Sequence record: MK327944.1
Origin: Escherichia phage vB_EcoM_G2540-3
DNA length: 64,000 nucleotides
Direction: 5' to 3' (one strand)
Both the position numbers and the translations under genes were made by a program. The number at the start of each line of letters is the position of its first letter. The stretch's first letter is position 1. The notes under the pieces are model-generated. The model was given only the letters and a program-made list of their open reading frames with translations, searched no databases and had not been told where the DNA came from. This document shows, one piece after another, positions 5,067 to 40,117 of this stretch.

Positions 5067-6575
5067 ATGGATATTAAAGTACATTTTCACGACTTCAGTC
5101 ATGTACGCATCGATTGTGAAGAGAGCACGTTCCACGAATTAAGAGATTTCTTTTCGTTTGAGGCCGATGGATATAGATTTAACCCTCGCTTCAGATATGG
5201 CAACTGGGATGGACGAATCCGTCTTTTAGATTATAATCGTCTTCTTCCGTTTGGCTTAGTCGGGCAAATTAAAAAGTTCTGTGATAACTTTGGCTATAAA
5301 GCCTGGATTGACCCGCAAATTAACGAAAAAGAAGAATTATCAAGAAAAGATTTTGATGAATGGCTTTCTAAATTAGAAATCTATTCAGGAAATAAAAGAA
5401 TTGAACCGCACTGGTATCAAAAAGATGCAGTGTTCGAAGGATTAGTTAATCGTCGTAGAATTCTTAATCTTCCAACATCCGCAGGTAAATCTTTAATTCA
5501 AGCTTTGCTTGCACGTTATTATTTGGAAAATTATGAAGGTAAAATTCTTATCATTGTTCCAACAACTGCTCTGACAACTCAGATGGCTGATGACTTCGTC
5601 GACTATCGTTTATTCAGTCATGCAATGATAAAGAAAATTGGTGGCGGAGCATCAAAAGATGATAAATATAAAAATGATGCACCAGTCGTTGTTGGTACAT
5701 GGCAAACTGTAGTTAAACAACCGAAAGAATGGTTCTCACAGTTTGGAATGATGATGAATGATGAATGTCATCTTGCTACAGGAAAAAGTATTTCATCTAT
5801 CATATCAGGTTTAAATAACTGCATGTTCAAATTCGGTTTGTCTGGTTCATTACGTGATGGCAAAGCCAATATCATGCAGTATGTTGGAATGTTTGGTGAA
5901 ATATTTAAGCCAGTAACGACTTCTAAATTAATGGAAGATGGACAAGTAACTGAGCTAAAAATTAATAGTATTTTTCTTCGCTATCCAGATGAGTTCACTA
6001 CTAAATTAAAGGGAAAAACTTATCAAGAAGAAATAAAAATTATTACTGGGCTCAGTAAAAGAAATAAATGGATCGCTAAATTAGCTATTAAGCTTGCGCA
6101 AAAAGATGAAAACGCTTTTGTCATGTTTAAACATGTATCACATGGTAAAGCTATTTTCGATTTAATTAAAAACGAATACGATAAAGTTTATTACGTATCA
6201 GGGGAAGTTGATACAGAAACCCGCAATATAATGAAAACCTTAGCTGAAAACGGTAAAGGAATAATTATAGTAGCTAGTTATGGTGTATTTTCTACTGGTA
6301 TTTCAGTTAAAAATCTGCATCACGTTGTTTTAGCACACGGTGTTAAATCAAAAATCATTGTATTACAAACAATCGGTCGTGTATTACGTAAGCATGGTTC
6401 TAAAACAATCGCAACAGTCTGGGACCTCATAGATGACGCGGGTGTAGTTTCTAAATCAAAAACATCTTCTAAAAAATACTCGCATTTAAACTATCTTTTA
6501 AAACATGGACTTGATCGTATTCAGCGTTATGCTGATGAAAAGTTTAATTATGTGATGAAAGAGGTTAAACTTTGA
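5067..6575 (+). CDS. uvsW: UvsW RNA-DNA/DNA helicase
   Basis: 502 aa, SF2 helicase motifs (LNLPTSAGKS Walker A, DECH box); N-terminus MDIKVHFHDF. Confidence 0.92.
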   Translation: MDIKVHFHDFSHVRIDCEESTFHELRDFFSFEADGYRFNPRFRYGNWDGRIRLLDYNRLLPFGLVGQIKKFCDNFGYKAWIDPQINEKEELSRKDFDEWLSKLEIYSGNKRIEPHWYQKDAVFEGLVNRRRILNLPTSAGKSLIQALLARYYLENYEGKILIIVPTTALTTQMADDFVDYRLFSHAMIKKIGGGASKDDKYKNDAPVVVGTWQTVVKQPKEWFSQFGMMMNDECHLATGKSISSIISGLNNCMFKFGLSGSLRDGKANIMQYVGMFGEIFKPVTTSKLMEDGQVTELKINSIFLRYPDEFTTKLKGKTYQEEIKIITGLSKRNKWIAKLAIKLAQKDENAFVMFKHVSHGKAIFDLIKNEYDKVYYVSGEVDTETRNIMKTLAENGKGIIIVASYGVFSTGISVKNLHHVVLAHGVKSKIIVLQTIGRVLRKHGSKTIATVWDLIDDAGVVSKSKTSSKKYSHLNYLLKHGLDRIQRYADEKFNYVMKEVKL

Positions 6576-7264
6576 ATTATAAATTAATATATGATAATTT
6601 AATTAATAGAGCCCAAAATCGGGCTCGCCTTAATGGATACACTGAAACACATCATATAATTCCTAGATGTATGGGTGGTACAAATGATAAGTGTAATTTA
6701 GTAGAACTAACGGCTGAAGAACATTTTATAGCCCATAAACTTTTAGCTAAAATTCATCCAAACCATTACGGTATAATTAAAGCTGTTATATGTATGGGGA
6801 TGAATTCAAATACTCATGAAAGACACGTTAATAAATCTTACGCATGGGAACGTCGTAAAATGGCAGAACTTCAATCCGGCGAAGGTAATCCATTTTACGG
6901 AAAACACCATACGGAAGAACATAAACAATATATGTCAAAACTCATGAAAAGTCGTCCAATTACATGGGGAAATAAAATTAGTAAAACTAAAAGAATGAAC
7001 CCAACGAAATGGACTGAAGAAGCTAAAAGATTACATTCAATCAATCAATCGGGTAAAAATAACGGCATGTATGGAAGGAAACATTCCGCTAAATCTATTC
7101 AGAAAATTAAAGATAACATGCCAGATAATTCAGGAGCTAATAACCCAGCTGCTAAACCTATAGAAGTAAATGGTGTTAAGTATAAATGTATGAAAGATGC
7201 TTCTAAAGCTACTGGATTATCAATGTACAAACTAAGAATACTTAGAAAAACAGTTAATTTATAA
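6572..7264 (+). CDS. HNH homing endonuclease, MobE-like, apparent TTG start overlapping uvsW stop
   Basis: HNH motif HHIIPRCMGG…NLVELTAEEHFIAH; N-terminus nearly identical in pattern to MobE at 33443-34177; repeated NUMOD-like G.HH..E/KH motifs. Confidence 0.8.
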   Translation: MNYKLIYDNLINRAQNRARLNGYTETHHIIPRCMGGTNDKCNLVELTAEEHFIAHKLLAKIHPNHYGIIKAVICMGMNSNTHERHVNKSYAWERRKMAELQSGEGNPFYGKHHTEEHKQYMSKLMKSRPITWGNKISKTKRMNPTKWTEEAKRLHSINQSGKNNGMYGRKHSAKSIQKIKDNMPDNSGANNPAAKPIEVNGVKYKCMKDASKATGLSMYKLRILRKTVNL

Positions 7265-16209: not shown

Positions 16210-16262
16210 TTGTGTTCCTCATGTTATGTCAGTAAGACTACTATAACACAACACGAGGGACT
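16210..16262 (-). promoter_or_regulatory. Early-promoter-like cassette (GTTTAC…TATAGT) with leader and SD; 53-bp identical copy of 29508-29560
   Basis: Minus-strand reading gtttacaagtccctcgtgttgtgttatagtagtcttactgacataacatgagg; identical at both loci. Confidence 0.55.
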
Positions 16263-16626
16263 TGTAAACTACATTTTGAACTTTTTAGTACGCGTAATAG
16301 GCATGCGTCGATTTTATACTGTTTCATTGTTTGAAGAGCAGTATCAAAAACAGCATTAATGACACCAATTGGATTTCCACCCAAGTTTTTAAGCTTAACT
16401 AATGATAGTTTCTCATTAACACCTATCATTACGATATGCATCATTTTATCGCCCGGCTTAACGTTTTATTCGTATCACCGCCAGAGGTGTATGTACAAAA
16501 TCTAAATCCAGGAAGCACGCTTTCTTCGCCGGCTTGAATAGCAAAAATTTGTGGTATTTTATGCTTAGGATTTAAGTTAACAACCGGCGCCGAAGCGCCG
16601 TCAAATAATTCTGTAATAAGTTCCAT
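16241..16626 (-). pseudogene. Decayed partial copy of the alt 5' end (Alt N-terminal ~130 aa, internally frameshifted)
   Basis: Two ORFs (61 and 67 aa) in different frames that align with Alt residues ~2-62 and ~64-130. Confidence 0.6.
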
Positions 16627-16629
16627 GAT

Positions 16630-18739
16630 TTATCCTTGAACGAACTTGTAAGGCATGTTTGCAATATCTATGCAAGACGCAATAATTCCAAGAGATGATT
16701 CTACTTTCTGTTTAACATTTGATGAAACAAATGATGCAAAGTCAACTCTATCTTCTATATCACCTGTCATTGTAACCAATTCACCAGTTTCCATTAAACG
16801 GTCACCGTCATAGATTACCGATTCGGTGAGTTCTTCTGTGGTCATAACTTCAGCTTGAATAAGCTTGTTGTTAGTTCTAACTGTTCCATCGTTGTAAGAT
16901 GCATCGGTTATTTTATTAACTTTGACCATTAATCCACGTGGCAAAATGACTTCCATTTCATTTGAAGGCGCTAAACTTCCACCGGGTAAAACAACATTGA
17001 CCTTATCAGCCCCAGTAATAACCCGCTAAACTTCCACCGGGTAAAACAACATTGACCTTATCAGCCCCAGTAATAACCCATCCAATTCCAACTAAATTAT
17101 CGCTAGAATTTACTAGTCCTTCATCAGTTTTATCAATAGAAACACTTAGACGCTTTTCGTCTGGTAAAACACCTATAGATGAATCAGTCATCCAAGTACC
17201 AAAAATATTTGGATATAATGATGTTGACACAAAGTTTCTAAAATAAAAAACTCGATTTTTTACCATTGCTTCATATATTGAAGGTAACATTCGTTGTGAA
17301 CGATACAAAGTAATACCTTTTGGTAATCGTTCACCATTTTTAAAGGCTGAATCTAAATTATCAATGGCTTGTTCTATTTCAGGTGCTGTTAAAATACTTG
17401 TACGCTCATCTGGATTATATAATCCCAAAAGAGCATTATTTATGTCTACATATCCTGAACCTACATATTCACGAATTCCGCGTTTTTGCGCTGGTGTGTA
17501 TTTAGATGAATCTTTATTTTCGACTATAGGATGTAATGACCATCCAGCGGTAAGAGCATATCCACGTAATTCTCTTCGAATAATCTTTGTTTTTATTGCA
17601 TTCCAAGAATTTTGCACTAACTCATTATTCGCAGCGTCTTGATTTAAATGCGAATGTCTGTTAATATTTCTTTCAAACCAGGCACCTTTATATTTTTCTA
17701 AAGTATCATCGACGATAGAAGCAATAGTTTCTAAAGTTTTTATTGAAGTAATAGATTCTTTTCGTAATTTTTCTAAAGCTTTATTTTTTATTTCTGCATT
17801 AATAATGGATTCTTTATCTTCAGGAATTATAGAAGCTTCTCTGAATGCCATCCCAGCTGTAACACTGCTAAGAGCATTCTCTAGTGCAAATCCTGAAGTA
17901 GAAATTACCGTTAATTCATTAGAATCAGAAATTAAAGGCGCGTCCGCTGGTTTATTTAATTCTGCCGCTGAAGCCTCAAATTTTTGAAACATCGGTGTTT
18001 CAAATCTAGAAGATTCCAATGACTGACTTTGTGCAATTGCTCTACGGGAAATTTTAACTTTAACGATTACAGCTTGGTCAGAACGTTTATCATTTTCTTG
18101 TGCAATAGATGCTGCAATTGCCTCATTTTTAGTTACTTGAGCTCCAGTATCTTTATTGATATAAACATCACCGACCTTCGATTCAACTTTAGTAAAGAGC
18201 TCGGTACTAATTTCCGGAACCCCTGGAATGTCTTCTAGTGATACATTTTTGCGATGTATAAGAATATATGCATACTTTTTATCATAATCCCAGAGTTCCT
18301 TAAGAAGGACGTATCTGCCACCTGAACGACTACGGATAAGTCTATCAGCAATAACTTGAATTTGTCGAGCTTGGCCAGCAGTTTTAGACTTAAGAATACG
18401 AAGCATACAAGCATCAATTTTATACTGACGCATTGTTTGCATTGCAACAGTAAAAACCGAATTGATATAATTAATTGGGCTTGGACCAAGACCTTTCAAT
18501 TTAGCAATTGAACCTTTAGCGGTTAATGTAAAAGGAACAATATGCATCATTTTATCGCCCATCTTTAAATCACGATTAGTATCACCTCCAGATGTATAGG
18601 TACATAAACGAAAGCCTGGTTGTTCAATTGCGTCATCAACATGAACTGAAAAAATTTGCGGTATTTTCTTCTTTGGATTTAAGTTTGTAATCGGAAGAGT
18701 AGTATCTTCGTCAAATAATTCTGTAATTAGTTCCATCAT
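16630..18739 (-). pseudogene. alt: ADP-ribosyltransferase Alt, interrupted by a 55-bp tandem duplication (577-aa N-part plus 108-aa C-part in shifted frame)
   Basis: Removing one 55-bp copy restores one continuous ~684-aa frame (…VVLPGGSLAPSNEMEVILPRG…), close to the 682 aa recalled for T4 Alt. Confidence 0.8.
16970..17079. repeat. Perfect 2 x 55-bp direct tandem repeat
   Basis: gctaaacttccaccgggtaaaacaacattgaccttatcagccccagtaataaccc occurs twice back to back (16970-17024 and 17025-17079). Confidence 0.9.
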
Positions 18740-33446: not shown

Positions 33447-34177
33447 AAATTTTTCCTCTTTAAAATTCTGCCGTGTTTCCAACCTGGCGGTATAATATCA
33501 TCTTTACCTATAAGCGTGCATTCACTTCCATTATTAATCCATTTCTTACCGCGGATTCCTTTATAATCTCTTGGTTTTATTTTGTCAAACTTTGCATCAA
33601 GTTGATATGACCATCTAAATCCATAAGCATATTGAAATTTACCCTCGGCACAATATTTGATATTTGACCCGTTTCCATTAACTGACCGGGACGCTGCCGC
33701 AATAGAGTGAAAGGTTTCTATGAAATCCCCATCTAATGAGAATTTATGTATTTCTACAGATGGGCACGCATATCTATTCACGTTAGATACATGCTGTTTA
33801 GTTTCGTTTTTATGATGCTTGCCTAGCATCCCTTTAGGATGAGGATTATTTTTCCAATATTTCTTAAAGAACTCAGAATTAGCTTTAGCAAATAATTTTC
33901 TGTGTAAGCTGTACAATCTGTTATTAATTCTATTGCCAGCTTTATCTGTTGCCATTAACGTTAACGCAGAGGCAAGACCAAAATGGCCTTCATTTATCTT
34001 ACATAGTAATAGATGAGCTATAAAATGTTCTCTGGCTGTTAATTCAACTAAATTTTCCTTATCATCAGAACCTCCCATACATTTAGGGATTATATGATGT
34101 GTCTCTTTATATTCTAGTAAAGATTCCCGAGCCTGAGCTCGGGAAATTAGGTCGTTATAGATTTTTTGATAATTCAT
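33443..34177 (-). CDS. mobE: HNH homing endonuclease MobE
   Basis: 244 aa, HNH motif HHIIPKCMGG…NLVELTAREHFIAH; sits between nrdA and nrdB as T4 mobE. Confidence 0.85.
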   Translation of the reverse strand: MNYQKIYNDLISRAQARESLLEYKETHHIIPKCMGGSDDKENLVELTAREHFIAHLLLCKINEGHFGLASALTLMATDKAGNRINNRLYSLHRKLFAKANSEFFKKYWKNNPHPKGMLGKHHKNETKQHVSNVNRYACPSVEIHKFSLDGDFIETFHSIAAASRSVNGNGSNIKYCAEGKFQYAYGFRWSYQLDAKFDKIKPRDYKGIRGKKWINNGSECTLIGKDDIIPPGWKHGRILKRKNL

Positions 34178-36441
34178 TACAATTTACACGCTGCGCAATC
34201 ATCGGCTTTTGGAGTTTCTATTTCATAATCATCAGTACCAGAACCATCGCGGGTATTATGATAATAGAAATTTTTAATGCCATAATACCATCCGTATAGC
34301 ATGTCATCAATCATTATTGACATTGGAACCTTTCCTTTTGGAAAAATCTGTGGGTCATAATATGTATTCGCTGAAGCTGATTGACACACCCATTTCAGCA
34401 TAATAGCTACCTGCGTAAGATAAGGTTTATTACCTTTCTTAGCTAATTTCCACGTATAATCATATAGGTCTATGTTATGCTCAATATTGGGCACGACTTG
34501 ATTAAAGGAACCCTCTTTTGATTCTTTAACAGAGACTGGTCCACGTGGAGGCTCGATACCGTTTGTACTGTTAGAAACTTGGGAAGATGACTCACATGGC
34601 ATAAGTGCTGATAATGTGCTATTACGGATGCCAAAGAGCTTAAGGTCTTCCCGCAGCGCCGACCAGTCACAAACGTATTTTGGAGCTGCGATTTGGTCAA
34701 TCTTTTTATTGTACCAGTCGATAGGTAATTCGCCTCGAGACCAACGAGTGTCTGAATAATATTCGCAAGGTCCTTTTTCTTTGGCGAGCTTAATGGATGC
34801 TTTAATGAGTCCATACTGTAATCTCTCAAATAGTTCATGTGTTAAATCGTTAGCATCTTCATAAGAAGCAAAGTTACTTGCCAGCCAAGCTGCATAGTTA
34901 GTAACACCTACACCAAGGTTTCGACGCTTTTTAGCTTTTTCTGCTTCAGGAACTGGATATCCTTGGTAATCCAAAAGATTATCAAGAGCACGAACTTGAA
35001 CTTCTGCTAATTCATTAATTTTATCTTGGTCTTGCCAATCGAAGTTATCCAGCACAAATGCAGATAACGTGCACAATCCAATTTCAGCATCAGGACTATT
35101 CACATCATTTGTTGGAATAGCAATTTCACAGCACAAGTTACTCTGACGAATAGGTGCCTTTTCACGAATAAACGGAGTATAGTTATTCGTATTATCAATG
35201 AACTGTACATAAATTCTTGCTGTTCCTGAACGTTCAGTCATGAGCAATTCAAATAGTTCACGGGCTTTAATACGCTTTTTACGAATATTAGGGTCTTTTT
35301 CTGCTGCTTCGTATAATTCACGGAAACGGTCTTGGTCTTTAAAATAAGAATAATAAAGCTCTCCACCCATTTCATGTGGACTAAACAAAGTAATGTAATC
35401 GTTCTTTCCAAAACGTTCCATCATCAAATCATTCAGCTGGACACCATAATCCATATGACGGATACGGTTTTCTTCTACGCCTTTGTTATTTTTCAAAACG
35501 AGAAGATTTTCAACTTCCAAATGCCAAATAGGATAATAAGCAGTAGCAGCGCCGCCACGAATTCCGCCCTGTGAACATGATTTAACAGCAGTCTGAAAAT
35601 GTTTCCAAAAAGGAATAACACCAGTATGACGCACTTCACCTGTGCCAATCTTAGAACCTTCGGCACGAATCATACCAACGTTAATGCCGATTCCAGCTCG
35701 CTTGGAGATATATTCAACAATTGAAGCAGAAGCTTTGTTGATAGACTTCAGCGAATCACCTGCCTCAATAACAACGCATGAACTAAACTGTCGAGTTGGA
35801 GTACGACATCCAGCCATAATAGGAGTTGGCAGTGAAATCTGTCGAGTAGATACTGCTTCATAAAAACGAATAACATGTTTTAATCTGTCAACAGGTTCAT
35901 CTTGATGCAATGCCATTCCAATAGTCATAAATGCAAACTGCGGAGTTTCATAAATTTGACCAGTGGTTTTATCTTTAACGAGATATTTTTCTTTTAATTG
36001 CATCGCTCCGGAATAAGTAAATTCCATATCCCGCTCGTGCTTAATTTTTGATTCTAAAAATGTAATTTCTTCTGCAGAATATTTTGACAACAATTCAGGG
36101 TCGTATTTACCTTCATTTACACAGTAAGAAATATGGTCAATAAATGAACGTGGTTCATATTGTCCATAAACATGCTTACGAAGAGCAAACATTAAACAGC
36201 GTGCAGCTACATATTGATAATCAGGCTCTTCAACCGAAATAGAATTCGCAGCAGCCTTAATTACAATGGTTTGAATGTCATCAGTGGTCATTCCATCACG
36301 GAGATATGATTTAATATTTTCATATAATTCATAAGGATCTACAGATGTTCCTTCAGCTGCCCAAGATAAAACTTTAATAATTTTTTGCGGGTCAAAGCTT
36401 TGAGAAACACCACTACTTTTGATAACATTAATTAATTGCAT
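34177..36441 (-). CDS. nrdA: Ribonucleotide reductase large subunit NrdA
   Basis: 754 aa, N-terminal ATP-cone, catalytic NLCCEI motif. Confidence 0.95.
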   Translation of the reverse strand: MQLINVIKSSGVSQSFDPQKIIKVLSWAAEGTSVDPYELYENIKSYLRDGMTTDDIQTIVIKAAANSISVEEPDYQYVAARCLMFALRKHVYGQYEPRSFIDHISYCVNEGKYDPELLSKYSAEEITFLESKIKHERDMEFTYSGAMQLKEKYLVKDKTTGQIYETPQFAFMTIGMALHQDEPVDRLKHVIRFYEAVSTRQISLPTPIMAGCRTPTRQFSSCVVIEAGDSLKSINKASASIVEYISKRAGIGINVGMIRAEGSKIGTGEVRHTGVIPFWKHFQTAVKSCSQGGIRGGAATAYYPIWHLEVENLLVLKNNKGVEENRIRHMDYGVQLNDLMMERFGKNDYITLFSPHEMGGELYYSYFKDQDRFRELYEAAEKDPNIRKKRIKARELFELLMTERSGTARIYVQFIDNTNNYTPFIREKAPIRQSNLCCEIAIPTNDVNSPDAEIGLCTLSAFVLDNFDWQDQDKINELAEVQVRALDNLLDYQGYPVPEAEKAKKRRNLGVGVTNYAAWLASNFASYEDANDLTHELFERLQYGLIKASIKLAKEKGPCEYYSDTRWSRGELPIDWYNKKIDQIAAPKYVCDWSALREDLKLFGIRNSTLSALMPCESSSQVSNSTNGIEPPRGPVSVKESKEGSFNQVVPNIEHNIDLYDYTWKLAKKGNKPYLTQVAIMLKWVCQSASANTYYDPQIFPKGKVPMSIMIDDMLYGWYYGIKNFYYHNTRDGSGTDDYEIETPKADDCAACKL

Positions 36442-36757
36442 AAGTCCTCAACTTGAAAATCGTCTTTAAACAATCGGTTAACTATATGAGCTATTATATC
36501 ACCATGACACGGCTTTGGTTTACATGTGCATCCTAGCCTCATTCCACGTAAAGGCTCTAAATGTGCTTTAGTTATTTCTCCGGATTTAATTCGACGTATA
36601 AAATCTTTTTTGAATAATTCAATGGCAGCCTCCCGGCTGCCAGCATCTTTACCGACGTAATTTCCCAAAATGTACCACGGTGAATATTAACATCAAAGTC
36701 GGATTTATATTTATTCACTACCTGGCATAGACGGCCCGCGCGGTGATAATTCGTCAT
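36432..36757 (-). CDS. DUF4326-like protein (nrdA.1 position), reading frame split by apparent 1-nt frameshift
   Basis: ATG-initiated frame [31 protein letters not shown] and a -1 frame continuing [18 protein letters not shown]…[16 protein letters not shown] together resemble one DUF4326 protein; junction at a G-run. Confidence 0.5.
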
Positions 36758-36974
36758 ATTGTTTTTCCGTTAAAACAGTAATATCATAGTAACAATCTGA
36801 AGAAGTTTTAACTGTAGAAATTTTATTATCAAAATACTCACGAGTCATTTTATGAGTATAATATTTTTTGCCATAAATGATAATAGGCTGATTTGGTCCT
36901 GGAACTTCTAATTCACTTGGGTTAGGAAGTGTAAAAAGAACTACACCAGAAGTATCTTTAAATCGTAAAATCAT
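36711..36974 (-). CDS. Hypothetical protein (nrdA.2 position)
   Basis: 87 aa from ATG at 36974 with SD gagga; track ORF starts at upstream TTG. Confidence 0.5.
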
Positions 36975-36997
36975 ATATCCTCGCAATTAAATTAAAA

Positions 36998-37309
36998 TTA
37001 TACCGCCATTTTTCCTTTCAAGACACCGTGGGACTGATAATCTTTGAGAACGAAATCTTTAGGCCTGAGTTTAAGAACATATTCCAATTGTTCTTTAGTA
37101 GAAAGATAACGGAATTTATAAGGCAATCCGCCTATTACCAGTTCACAAAGCTCTTTAGGTTCACGACGCAAAATTTCTTTGCACTGTTCTACATGATTCA
37201 TATAGATATGAGTATTACCACCAGAAAATATCAAATCTCCTGGAGTAAGATTACACATCTTAGCTACAATATGAACTAACGCAGCATATGATGCAATATT
37301 AAACGGTAG
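36998..37309 (-). CDS. td: Thymidylate synthase, exon 2
   Basis: Begins LPFNIASY… immediately after intron 3' end …AUG; C-terminal TS sequence. Confidence 0.9.
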   Translation of the reverse strand, partial: LPFNIASYAALVHIVAKMCNLTPGDLIFSGGNTHIYMNHVEQCKEILRREPKELCELVIGGLPYKFRYLSTKEQLEYVLKLRPKDFVLKDYQSHGVLKGKMAV

Positions 37310-38325
37310 CATTATGTTCAGATAAGGTCGTTAATCTTACCCCGGAATTATATCCAGCTGCATGTCACCATGCAGAGCAGACTATATCTCCAACTTGTTA
37401 AAGCAAGTTGTCTATCGTTTCGAGTCACTTGACCCTACTCCCAAAAGGGATAGTCGTTAGGCATTTATGTAGAACCAATTCCATTTATCAGATTTTACAC
37501 GATAAGTAACTAATCCAGACGAAATTTTAAAATGTCTAGCTGCATCTGCTGCACAATCAAAAATAACCCCATCACATGAAATCTTTTTAATATTACTAGG
37601 CTTTTTACCTTTCATCTTTTCTGATATTTTAGATTTAGTTATGTCTGAATGCTTATGATTAAAGAATGAATTATTTTCACCTGAACGATTTCTGCATTTA
37701 CTACAAGTATAAGCAGAAGTTTGTATGCGAACACCGCACTTACAAAACTTATGGGTTTCTGGATTCCAACGCCCGTTTTTACTTCCGGGTTTACTGTAAA
37801 GAGCTTTCCGACCATCAGGTCCAAGTTTAAGCATCTTAGCTTTAACAGTTTCAGAACGTTTCTTAATAATTTCTTCTTTTAATGGATGCGTAGAACATGT
37901 ATCACCAAACGTTGCATCAGCAATATTGTATCCATTAATTTTAGAATTAAGCTCTTTAATCCAAAAATTTTCTCGTTCAATAATCAAATCTTTCTCATAT
38001 GGAATTTCTTCCAAAATAGAACATTCAAACACATTACCATGTTTGTTAAAAGACCTCTGAAGTTTTATAGAAGAATGGCATCCTTTTTCTAAATCTTTAA
38101 AATGCCTCTTCCATCTCTTTTCAAAATCTTTAGCACTTCCTACATATACTTTATTGTTTAAAGTATTTTTAATCTGATAAATTCCGCTTTTCATAAATAC
38201 CTCTTTAAATATAGAAGTATTTATTAAAGGGCAGTCCTACAATTTAGCACGGGATTGTCTACTAGAGAGGTTCCCCGTTTAGATAGATTACAAGTATAAG
38301 TCACCTTATACTCAGGCCTCAATTA
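37310..38325 (-). mobile_element. td group I intron (1016 bp) carrying I-TevI
   Basis: 5' end reads UAAUUGAGGCCUGAGUAUAAGGUGACUUAUACUUG… after exon …CUUGGGU; 3' end …AUG; length 1016 nt as recalled for T4 td intron. Confidence 0.9.
37457..38194 (-). CDS. I-TevI: Intron-encoded GIY-YIG homing endonuclease I-TevI
   Basis: 245 aa, MKSGIYQIKNTLNNKVYVGSAKDFEKRWKRH… with C-terminal Zn finger and HTH. Confidence 0.95.
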   Translation of the reverse strand: MKSGIYQIKNTLNNKVYVGSAKDFEKRWKRHFKDLEKGCHSSIKLQRSFNKHGNVFECSILEEIPYEKDLIIERENFWIKELNSKINGYNIADATFGDTCSTHPLKEEIIKKRSETVKAKMLKLGPDGRKALYSKPGSKNGRWNPETHKFCKCGVRIQTSAYTCSKCRNRSGENNSFFNHKHSDITKSKISEKMKGKKPSNIKKISCDGVIFDCAADAARHFKISSGLVTYRVKSDKWNWFYINA

Positions 38326-39874: not shown

Positions 39875-40117
39875 TCAAAACCCCCTTTCAATAAACCATT
39901 CAGTGGCTTTATTAGCATCAAAGAATAATTCTTCATATGTCTTTTCTTTGTTTTCAAAGACTGTCACACAAACACGTTGACATTCTCCACAGTATTCTTC
40001 TGACATGCTCAAAGCGTCAGAAAACATTTCATTAAATTCATTTAAATCAGGATTATGCAATGCGTTAAAAATTGCATAATCGAATTCATCATTCATAAAT
40101 TCAAATACAAAAATCAT
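39875..40117 (-). CDS. Hypothetical protein (frd.1 position)
   Basis: 80-aa ATG ORF. Confidence 0.5.
   Translation of the reverse strand: MIFVFEFMNDEFDYAIFNALHNPDLNEFNEMFSDALSMSEEYCGECQRVCVTVFENKEKTYEELFFDANKATEWFIERGF

Follow-up and report, generated by a model that had tools for sequence, protein, structure and literature searches.

A one-nucleotide frameshift divides the DUF4326 gene nrdA.1 of a T4-like phage and probably represents a genuine inactivated allele

The nrdA.1 gene is a T4-family accessory gene that encodes a 108-aa single-domain DUF4326 protein. In phage T4 (NP_049846, T4p235) and in RB3 (RB3_228) it is a single gene of 327 nt and 108 codons, lying between nrdA.2 and nrdA and with its stop codon overlapping the nrdA start. 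The family is listed in PHROGs as being of unknown function, and a search of the literature on nrdA.1 and DUF4326 found no experimental work. The published proposals are computational only, and in one of these DUF4326 is proposed to belong to the rhodanese-phosphatase superfamily, as an enzymatic domain that would cleave terminal phosphates off molecules derived from ADP-ribose (PMC9503650). NrdA.1 homologues are present in 1,966 phage records, and in T4-like, Vi01-like and RaK2-like jumbo phages they often adjoin nrdA, nrdB/F, nrdG or thioredoxin genes; this recurring nrd-adjacent position, in phages so dissimilar, would also be consistent with a function in nucleotide metabolism. Two described kinds of frame change are relevant to the locus reported here. 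The first is the Streisinger-type frameshift mutation of T4, with hot spots at base runs in the rII and lysozyme genes; our locus is alike in having a one-base length change in a short homopolymer run of a non-essential T4-type gene, although those mutations were selected in the laboratory. The second is programmed −1 frameshifting of the dnaX type, in which the slippery site of Escherichia coli dnaX is the heptamer A_AAA_AAG.

The DNA analysed is a stretch of 64,000 nucleotides (the window) which the surrounding genes and comparison with sequence records place in a T4-like phage of the genus Tequatrovirus, with approximately 96% identity to RB3. RB3 and its near-identical relatives are the best-matching records over 24 kb, and since even these closest records are only ~96% identical, the source genome is evidently absent from the phage collection. 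The gene set of the window includes nrdB with its intron, a mobE-like HNH endonuclease gene, nrdA, the td gene split by the I-TevI intron, and frd, and the gene order td – nrdA.2 – nrdA.1 – nrdA is that of the T4 nrdA.1 orthologues, with near-identity to T4 and RB3. There are also differences in gene content from RB3: a 230-aa HNH (MobE-like) homing endonuclease gene (6572..7264, plus strand) is located between uvsW and uvsW.1 and is absent from RB3, and RB3 segG, RB3_214 and RB3_270 are without counterparts in the window.

Where T4 and RB3 have a single nrdA.1 gene, the window is missing one G and contains two minus-strand ORFs, of 61 aa and 78 aa, which correspond to the two halves of T4 nrdA.1 (Table 1) and share 97–100% aa identity with the T4 and RB3 proteins. 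The 78-aa ORF is offset by 89 nt from the 61-aa ORF and is therefore in the −1 frame relative to it. In tblastn searches RB3 NrdA.1 residues 1–31 match 36757..36665 at 100% identity, and residues 30–108 match 36671..36435 in a frame that differs from that of the 5’ half. The 5’ fragment is composed of native residues 1–31 followed by 30 out-of-frame codons; the 3’ fragment contains the invariant GCTCxPxxCHGD motif and has a nominal TTG start without an evident purine-rich Shine-Dalgarno sequence ahead of it. Some depositors annotate a 95-aa NrdA.1 starting at a GTG codon (position 36718), and this start was considered and dropped in favour of the ATG at 36757, because Cys11 and Val13, which are encoded upstream of the GTG, show no or almost no variation among 44 homologues. 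Downstream, the nrdA ATG (36441..36439) overlaps the nrdA.1 stop codon, and nrdA has its own Shine-Dalgarno sequence (GAGGA, 36449..36445) 3 nt before its ATG. A scan of 36300..37400 for promoters and terminators gave no candidates above background.

Table 1. Coordinates in the window of nrdA.1, its neighbours and local sequence features.
Feature	Coordinates	Strand	Evidence
nrdA.1 5’ fragment, 61 aa	36572..36757	-	ORF list; ATG 36757, stop TAA 36574..36572
nrdA.1 3’ fragment, 78 aa, native frame, residues 32-108	36432..36668	-	ORF list, Pfam, tblastn
G3 run, G4 in relatives; probable 1-nt deletion site	36664..36666	-	Alignments
nrdA.2 (DUF5496), intact upstream neighbour, overlaps nrdA.1 start	36711..36986	-	PF17600, 198 bits; 100% identity to RB3 NrdA.2
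nrdA, intact	34177..36441	-	99.9% identity to RB3 NrdA, full length
A_AAA_AAG heptamer, in phase with the shifted frame (TCA AAA AAG, 36613..36605)	36605..36611	-	Translations
8-bp hairpin UGGCAGCC-GGGA-GGCUGCCA, 21 nt downstream of the G-run	36623..36642	-	Folding

Alignment of the window (36800..36420, minus strand) with RB3, P922, T4_ev240 and T4 reveals a sole indel, the window having TTTTGGGAAA and the others TTTTGGGGAAA. With the missing G restored, the sequence encodes a 108-aa protein that matches the Pfam family PF14216 (DUF4326) with a score of 77.5 bits (gathering threshold 25 bits) over profile positions 2–81 of 82. By itself the 3’ ORF matches profile positions 23–81 (57.3 bits), and the 5’ ORF by itself has no Pfam match. 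The domain is thus not whole in any one frame: positions 2–22 of the profile are in the ATG-started frame and positions 23–81 in the −1 frame, and this division over two frames identifies the window copy as a disrupted member of the family. The first-pass annotation had proposed that an ATG-started frame and an overlapping −1 frame constitute one DUF4326 gene, divided at a G-run by a single-nucleotide frameshift such that one additional G would fuse them, and the ORFs, the end-to-end profile match and the alignment are in agreement with each part of this. Its description of the gene as downstream of nrdA is correct only in plus-strand coordinates, as nrdA.1 is 5’ of nrdA and is transcribed ahead of it, and the G-run, which it had put near 36650–36665, is present with its exact place corrected to 36664..36666.

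Among 44 aligned homologues the invariant residues are C11, N15-K16-Y17, S19-D20, D22, R27-G28-T29, G32-N33 and G76-C77-T78-C79...C84-H85-G86, and these columns are present on both sides of the break. The break itself sits between W31 and G32, within the invariant RGTxWGN motif. All of the T4-type invariant residues are still encoded in the window DNA, with G32, N33 and those that follow being out of frame with the start. Comparison with the PADLOC anti-phage defence HMMs gave no family matching NrdA.1 at E values up to 1.

The ORF list is compatible at face value with two genes that are normally separate, and some depositors do annotate two small ORFs at this locus in phages carrying a different frameshift allele (the A7 allele described below). 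We regard this reading as exceedingly improbable, as nrdA.1 is annotated in T4 and RB3 as one gene of 327 nt, the alignment of the 44 homologues is that of one domain, invariant residues being found to either side of the break, and a single Pfam domain bridges the junction. The first-pass annotation had noted that its interpretation would fail if homologues had two separate genes; T4, RB3 and 459 phage records with GGGG at this site all have one uninterrupted ORF.

Those 459 records come from a control search with a GGGG query, of which 306 match at 100% identity. The corresponding 36-mer centred on GGG, in which each 28-nt word spans the GGG site, has no matches among 50,697 phage records. 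Similarly, a 25-mer carrying GGG is absent from IMG/VR, from metagenome contigs and from GTDB genomes, and the GGGG 26-mer control is found in five IMG/VR contigs. An index of 153 billion genes contains no record of the exact 61-aa product, nor of a truncated 577-aa Alt protein that is also encoded in the window. As the GGG allele is unmatched in all the collections searched, we treat it as a singleton.

One way to reconcile a split domain with a functional product is recoding, in which ribosomal −1 frameshifting or transcriptional slippage at TTTTGGGAAA generates full-length NrdA.1, or in which a −1 shift at an A_AAA_AAG heptamer produces a full-length protein with a scrambled interior. The shift required is indeed −1, and 54 nt beyond the break the shifted frame contains an in-phase A_AAA_AAG heptamer identical to the dnaX slippery site, where a −1 slip would rejoin the native frame at Asp51. 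The resemblance to dnaX ends there, as the window has no heptamer at the break, no properly spaced stimulator and no conserved split gene. The zero-frame codons at the break are ACA TTT TGG GAA, which contain no X_XXY_YYZ heptamer; a −1 shift at the G-run would leave tRNA-Phe and tRNA-Trp unable to pair again; and the T4, G3 and A3 runs are too short for transcriptional slippage. The sole stable hairpin starts 21 nt downstream rather than 5–9 nt, the regional folding z-score is −1.44, and the hairpin is unchanged in relatives in which the ORF is intact. A slip at the A_AAA_AAG heptamer would yield a product with residues 32–50 scrambled and without the invariant G32 and N33. The window moreover contains only 22 AAAAAAG heptamers where 44 would be expected by chance, and the in-phase copy is fortuitous and no evidence of recoding. 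Finally, the split-frame arrangement is not conserved, with GGGG in 459 phage records and GGG in none, and, the ORF of the relatives being uninterrupted, there is no conserved recoding signal. We therefore consider recoding very improbable. Of the three explanations that the first-pass annotation had offered, a genuine pseudogene is the best supported, and slippage at the G-run is without support in the sequence. We note as a separate matter that the hairpin has GGGA in its loop, and reads GGGAGG from the loop into its 3’ arm; the RegB endoribonuclease has GGAG as its target motif.

The more substantial alternative is that the lesion is a sequencing or assembly artefact, with the consensus having lost one G of a GGGG run and nrdA.1 being intact in the phage itself. 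Homopolymers are the classic sites of indel errors, the flanks are otherwise identical to those of relatives, and the singleton status of the GGG allele over all collections searched is how an error would look. However, a run of four Gs is short for errors of this type, and the remainder of the window provides an internal control. Comparison of approximately 100 RB3 proteins with the window by tblastn identifies 90 other genes that are conserved with RB3 over their full length in a single frame, and within these genes there are 938 homopolymer runs of 4 nt or more (328 of at least 5 nt, and 55 of 6–7 nt), none of which is frameshifted. With all 938 runs in frame, systematic homopolymer error or an error-prone assembly is unlikely. 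Real frameshift alleles of nrdA.1 are also common in independent isolates and metagenomes, as described below. Weighing these points, we consider an artefact unlikely, albeit the only alternative of any real weight, and conclude that the frameshift is probably a genuine 1-nt deletion (G4 to G3) and the window copy a real inactivated allele. Elsewhere, isolated 1-nt differences in length relative to RB3 are confined to intergenic DNA or to the last few codons of a gene. For example, there is a harmless difference in a G/C-run at 39877..39885, with C5 in the window and C4 in RB3, such that a small ORF (39875..40117) ends in ...ERGF* instead of ...ERGFA*.

The only other frame-broken gene in the window is alt, coding for the RNA polymerase ADP-ribosyltransferase (16630..18739, minus strand), where a perfect tandem duplication of 55 bp (16969..17079) divides the reading frame into ORFs of 577 aa and 108 aa. 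In phage e11/2 alt is intact as a single 683-aa ORF. The duplication junction was not found in the phage collection, and this second gene-breaking lesion in the window is not a homopolymer artefact, which adds to the case for a real mutation in nrdA.1. The adjacent alt.-2 (16241..16626, minus strand) is a 116-codon remnant containing two small ORFs (61 aa and 67 aa) in different frames, whereas in RB3 alt.-2 encodes 685 aa. The two ORFs are arranged in phage e11/2 as in the window, indicating that the remnant was inherited.

Homology searches return truncated relatives of nrdA.1 from other phages, and the first half of nrdA.1 has at least four distinct frameshift alleles, that of the window included. 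The closest in position is in a clade of five phages (HY03, pSe_SNUABM_01, ELT1, SG1 and JEP6), in which TTTTGGGGAAAT is replaced by TTTAGAGCCTTT (TTTAGAGTCTTT in JEP6). This lesion is a cluster of substitutions with a net loss of 1 nt, and it affects the same 12 nt as in the window (aligned 36656..36670), with conserved flanks. The predicted product of HY03_0257 (AKJ72898) is likewise 61 aa long, with the same out-of-frame tail as that of the window, although most depositors annotate no gene at nrdA.1 in these phages. The HY03 allele is nevertheless an independent lesion that is clade-wide, whereas that of the window is a clean loss of a single G.

A second allele is an expansion of an A-run from A6 to A7 (equivalent to window positions 36606..36611), which is present in at least 15 isolates, including vB_EcoM_Lutter, Ec_MI-02, EC.W2-1, the PM and G3G series and S2_01, and in five Logan/ENA contigs that are from different studies and have differing SNP backgrounds. 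This is a +1 insertion, 54 nt downstream of the window lesion, and occurs in many isolates; both it and the window lesion are homopolymer-length changes in the first half of nrdA.1 that inactivate the gene. A third allele, GG to GGG in CCGGGAGGCT (equivalent to 36629..36630), occurs in four Logan metagenome contigs, and its junction has no match among phage records at 90% identity or above. For both the A7 and the GG-to-GGG alleles gene callers report an 87-aa chimeric ORF that begins at an ATG in another frame (MLIFT...). Counts of alleles using short junction peptides are uninformative, because tblastn joined both frames in one place.

The independent frameshift alleles in other T4-like phages indicate that nrdA.1 is dispensable, at least under some conditions, and with such recurrent breakage a real loss-of-function allele in the window is unsurprising. 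It is conceivable, though we think it doubtful, that loss of nrdA.1 is recurrently favoured in T4-like phages, for example if making NrdA.1 carries a cost in some hosts or if a host defence recognises the protein. If so, short runs such as T4G4A3, GGGAGG and A6 would provide a mutational route and the window allele would be one more independent hit, and the HY03-clade lesion within the same 12 nt would be better explained by a local hot spot or target than by neutral decay.

Taking the G4-to-G3 deletion as genuine, strand slippage during replication would be its likeliest origin. The gene is otherwise undecayed, with the 3’ 240 nt identical to relatives, so that the lesion, if real, is recent. 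Ribosomes initiating at the ATG would stay in the native frame only as far as Trp31, and after 30 foreign codons would terminate at the TAA codon of the 5’ fragment. The 61-aa product is without Gly32-Asn33 and the whole of the GCTCxPxxCHGD motif, and the enzyme is therefore predicted to be lost. The 3’ ORF, having neither an ATG start nor an evident ribosome-binding site, is probably silent. Because nrdA has its own Shine-Dalgarno sequence and start codon it is presumably still translated and little affected, although it would lose any coupling to ribosomes that finish translating nrdA.1.

The window sequence is most probably an ordinary pseudogene allele of a phage gene that is already known and annotated, and is no new type of feature; that nrdA.1 is repeatedly broken over the T4-like phages is a modest comparative note. 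In annotations the locus is best entered as an nrdA.1 (DUF4326) pseudogene with a frameshift, or marked for a check of the reads, and not described as two hypothetical proteins. The dispensability of a conserved, nrd-linked DUF4326 gene is not surprising, but is a useful constraint for the assignment of its function.

The two ends of nrdA.1 also differ in their conservation. Among T4, RB3, HY03, JEP6 and the window the 3’ ~240 nt (36432..36660) is almost invariant at the DNA level, with one SNP, and the 5’ 100 nt has approximately 10% differences. Among other possible causes, this contrast might stem from a tract of recombination or gene conversion, or from a constraint imposed by the initiation of nrdA translation.
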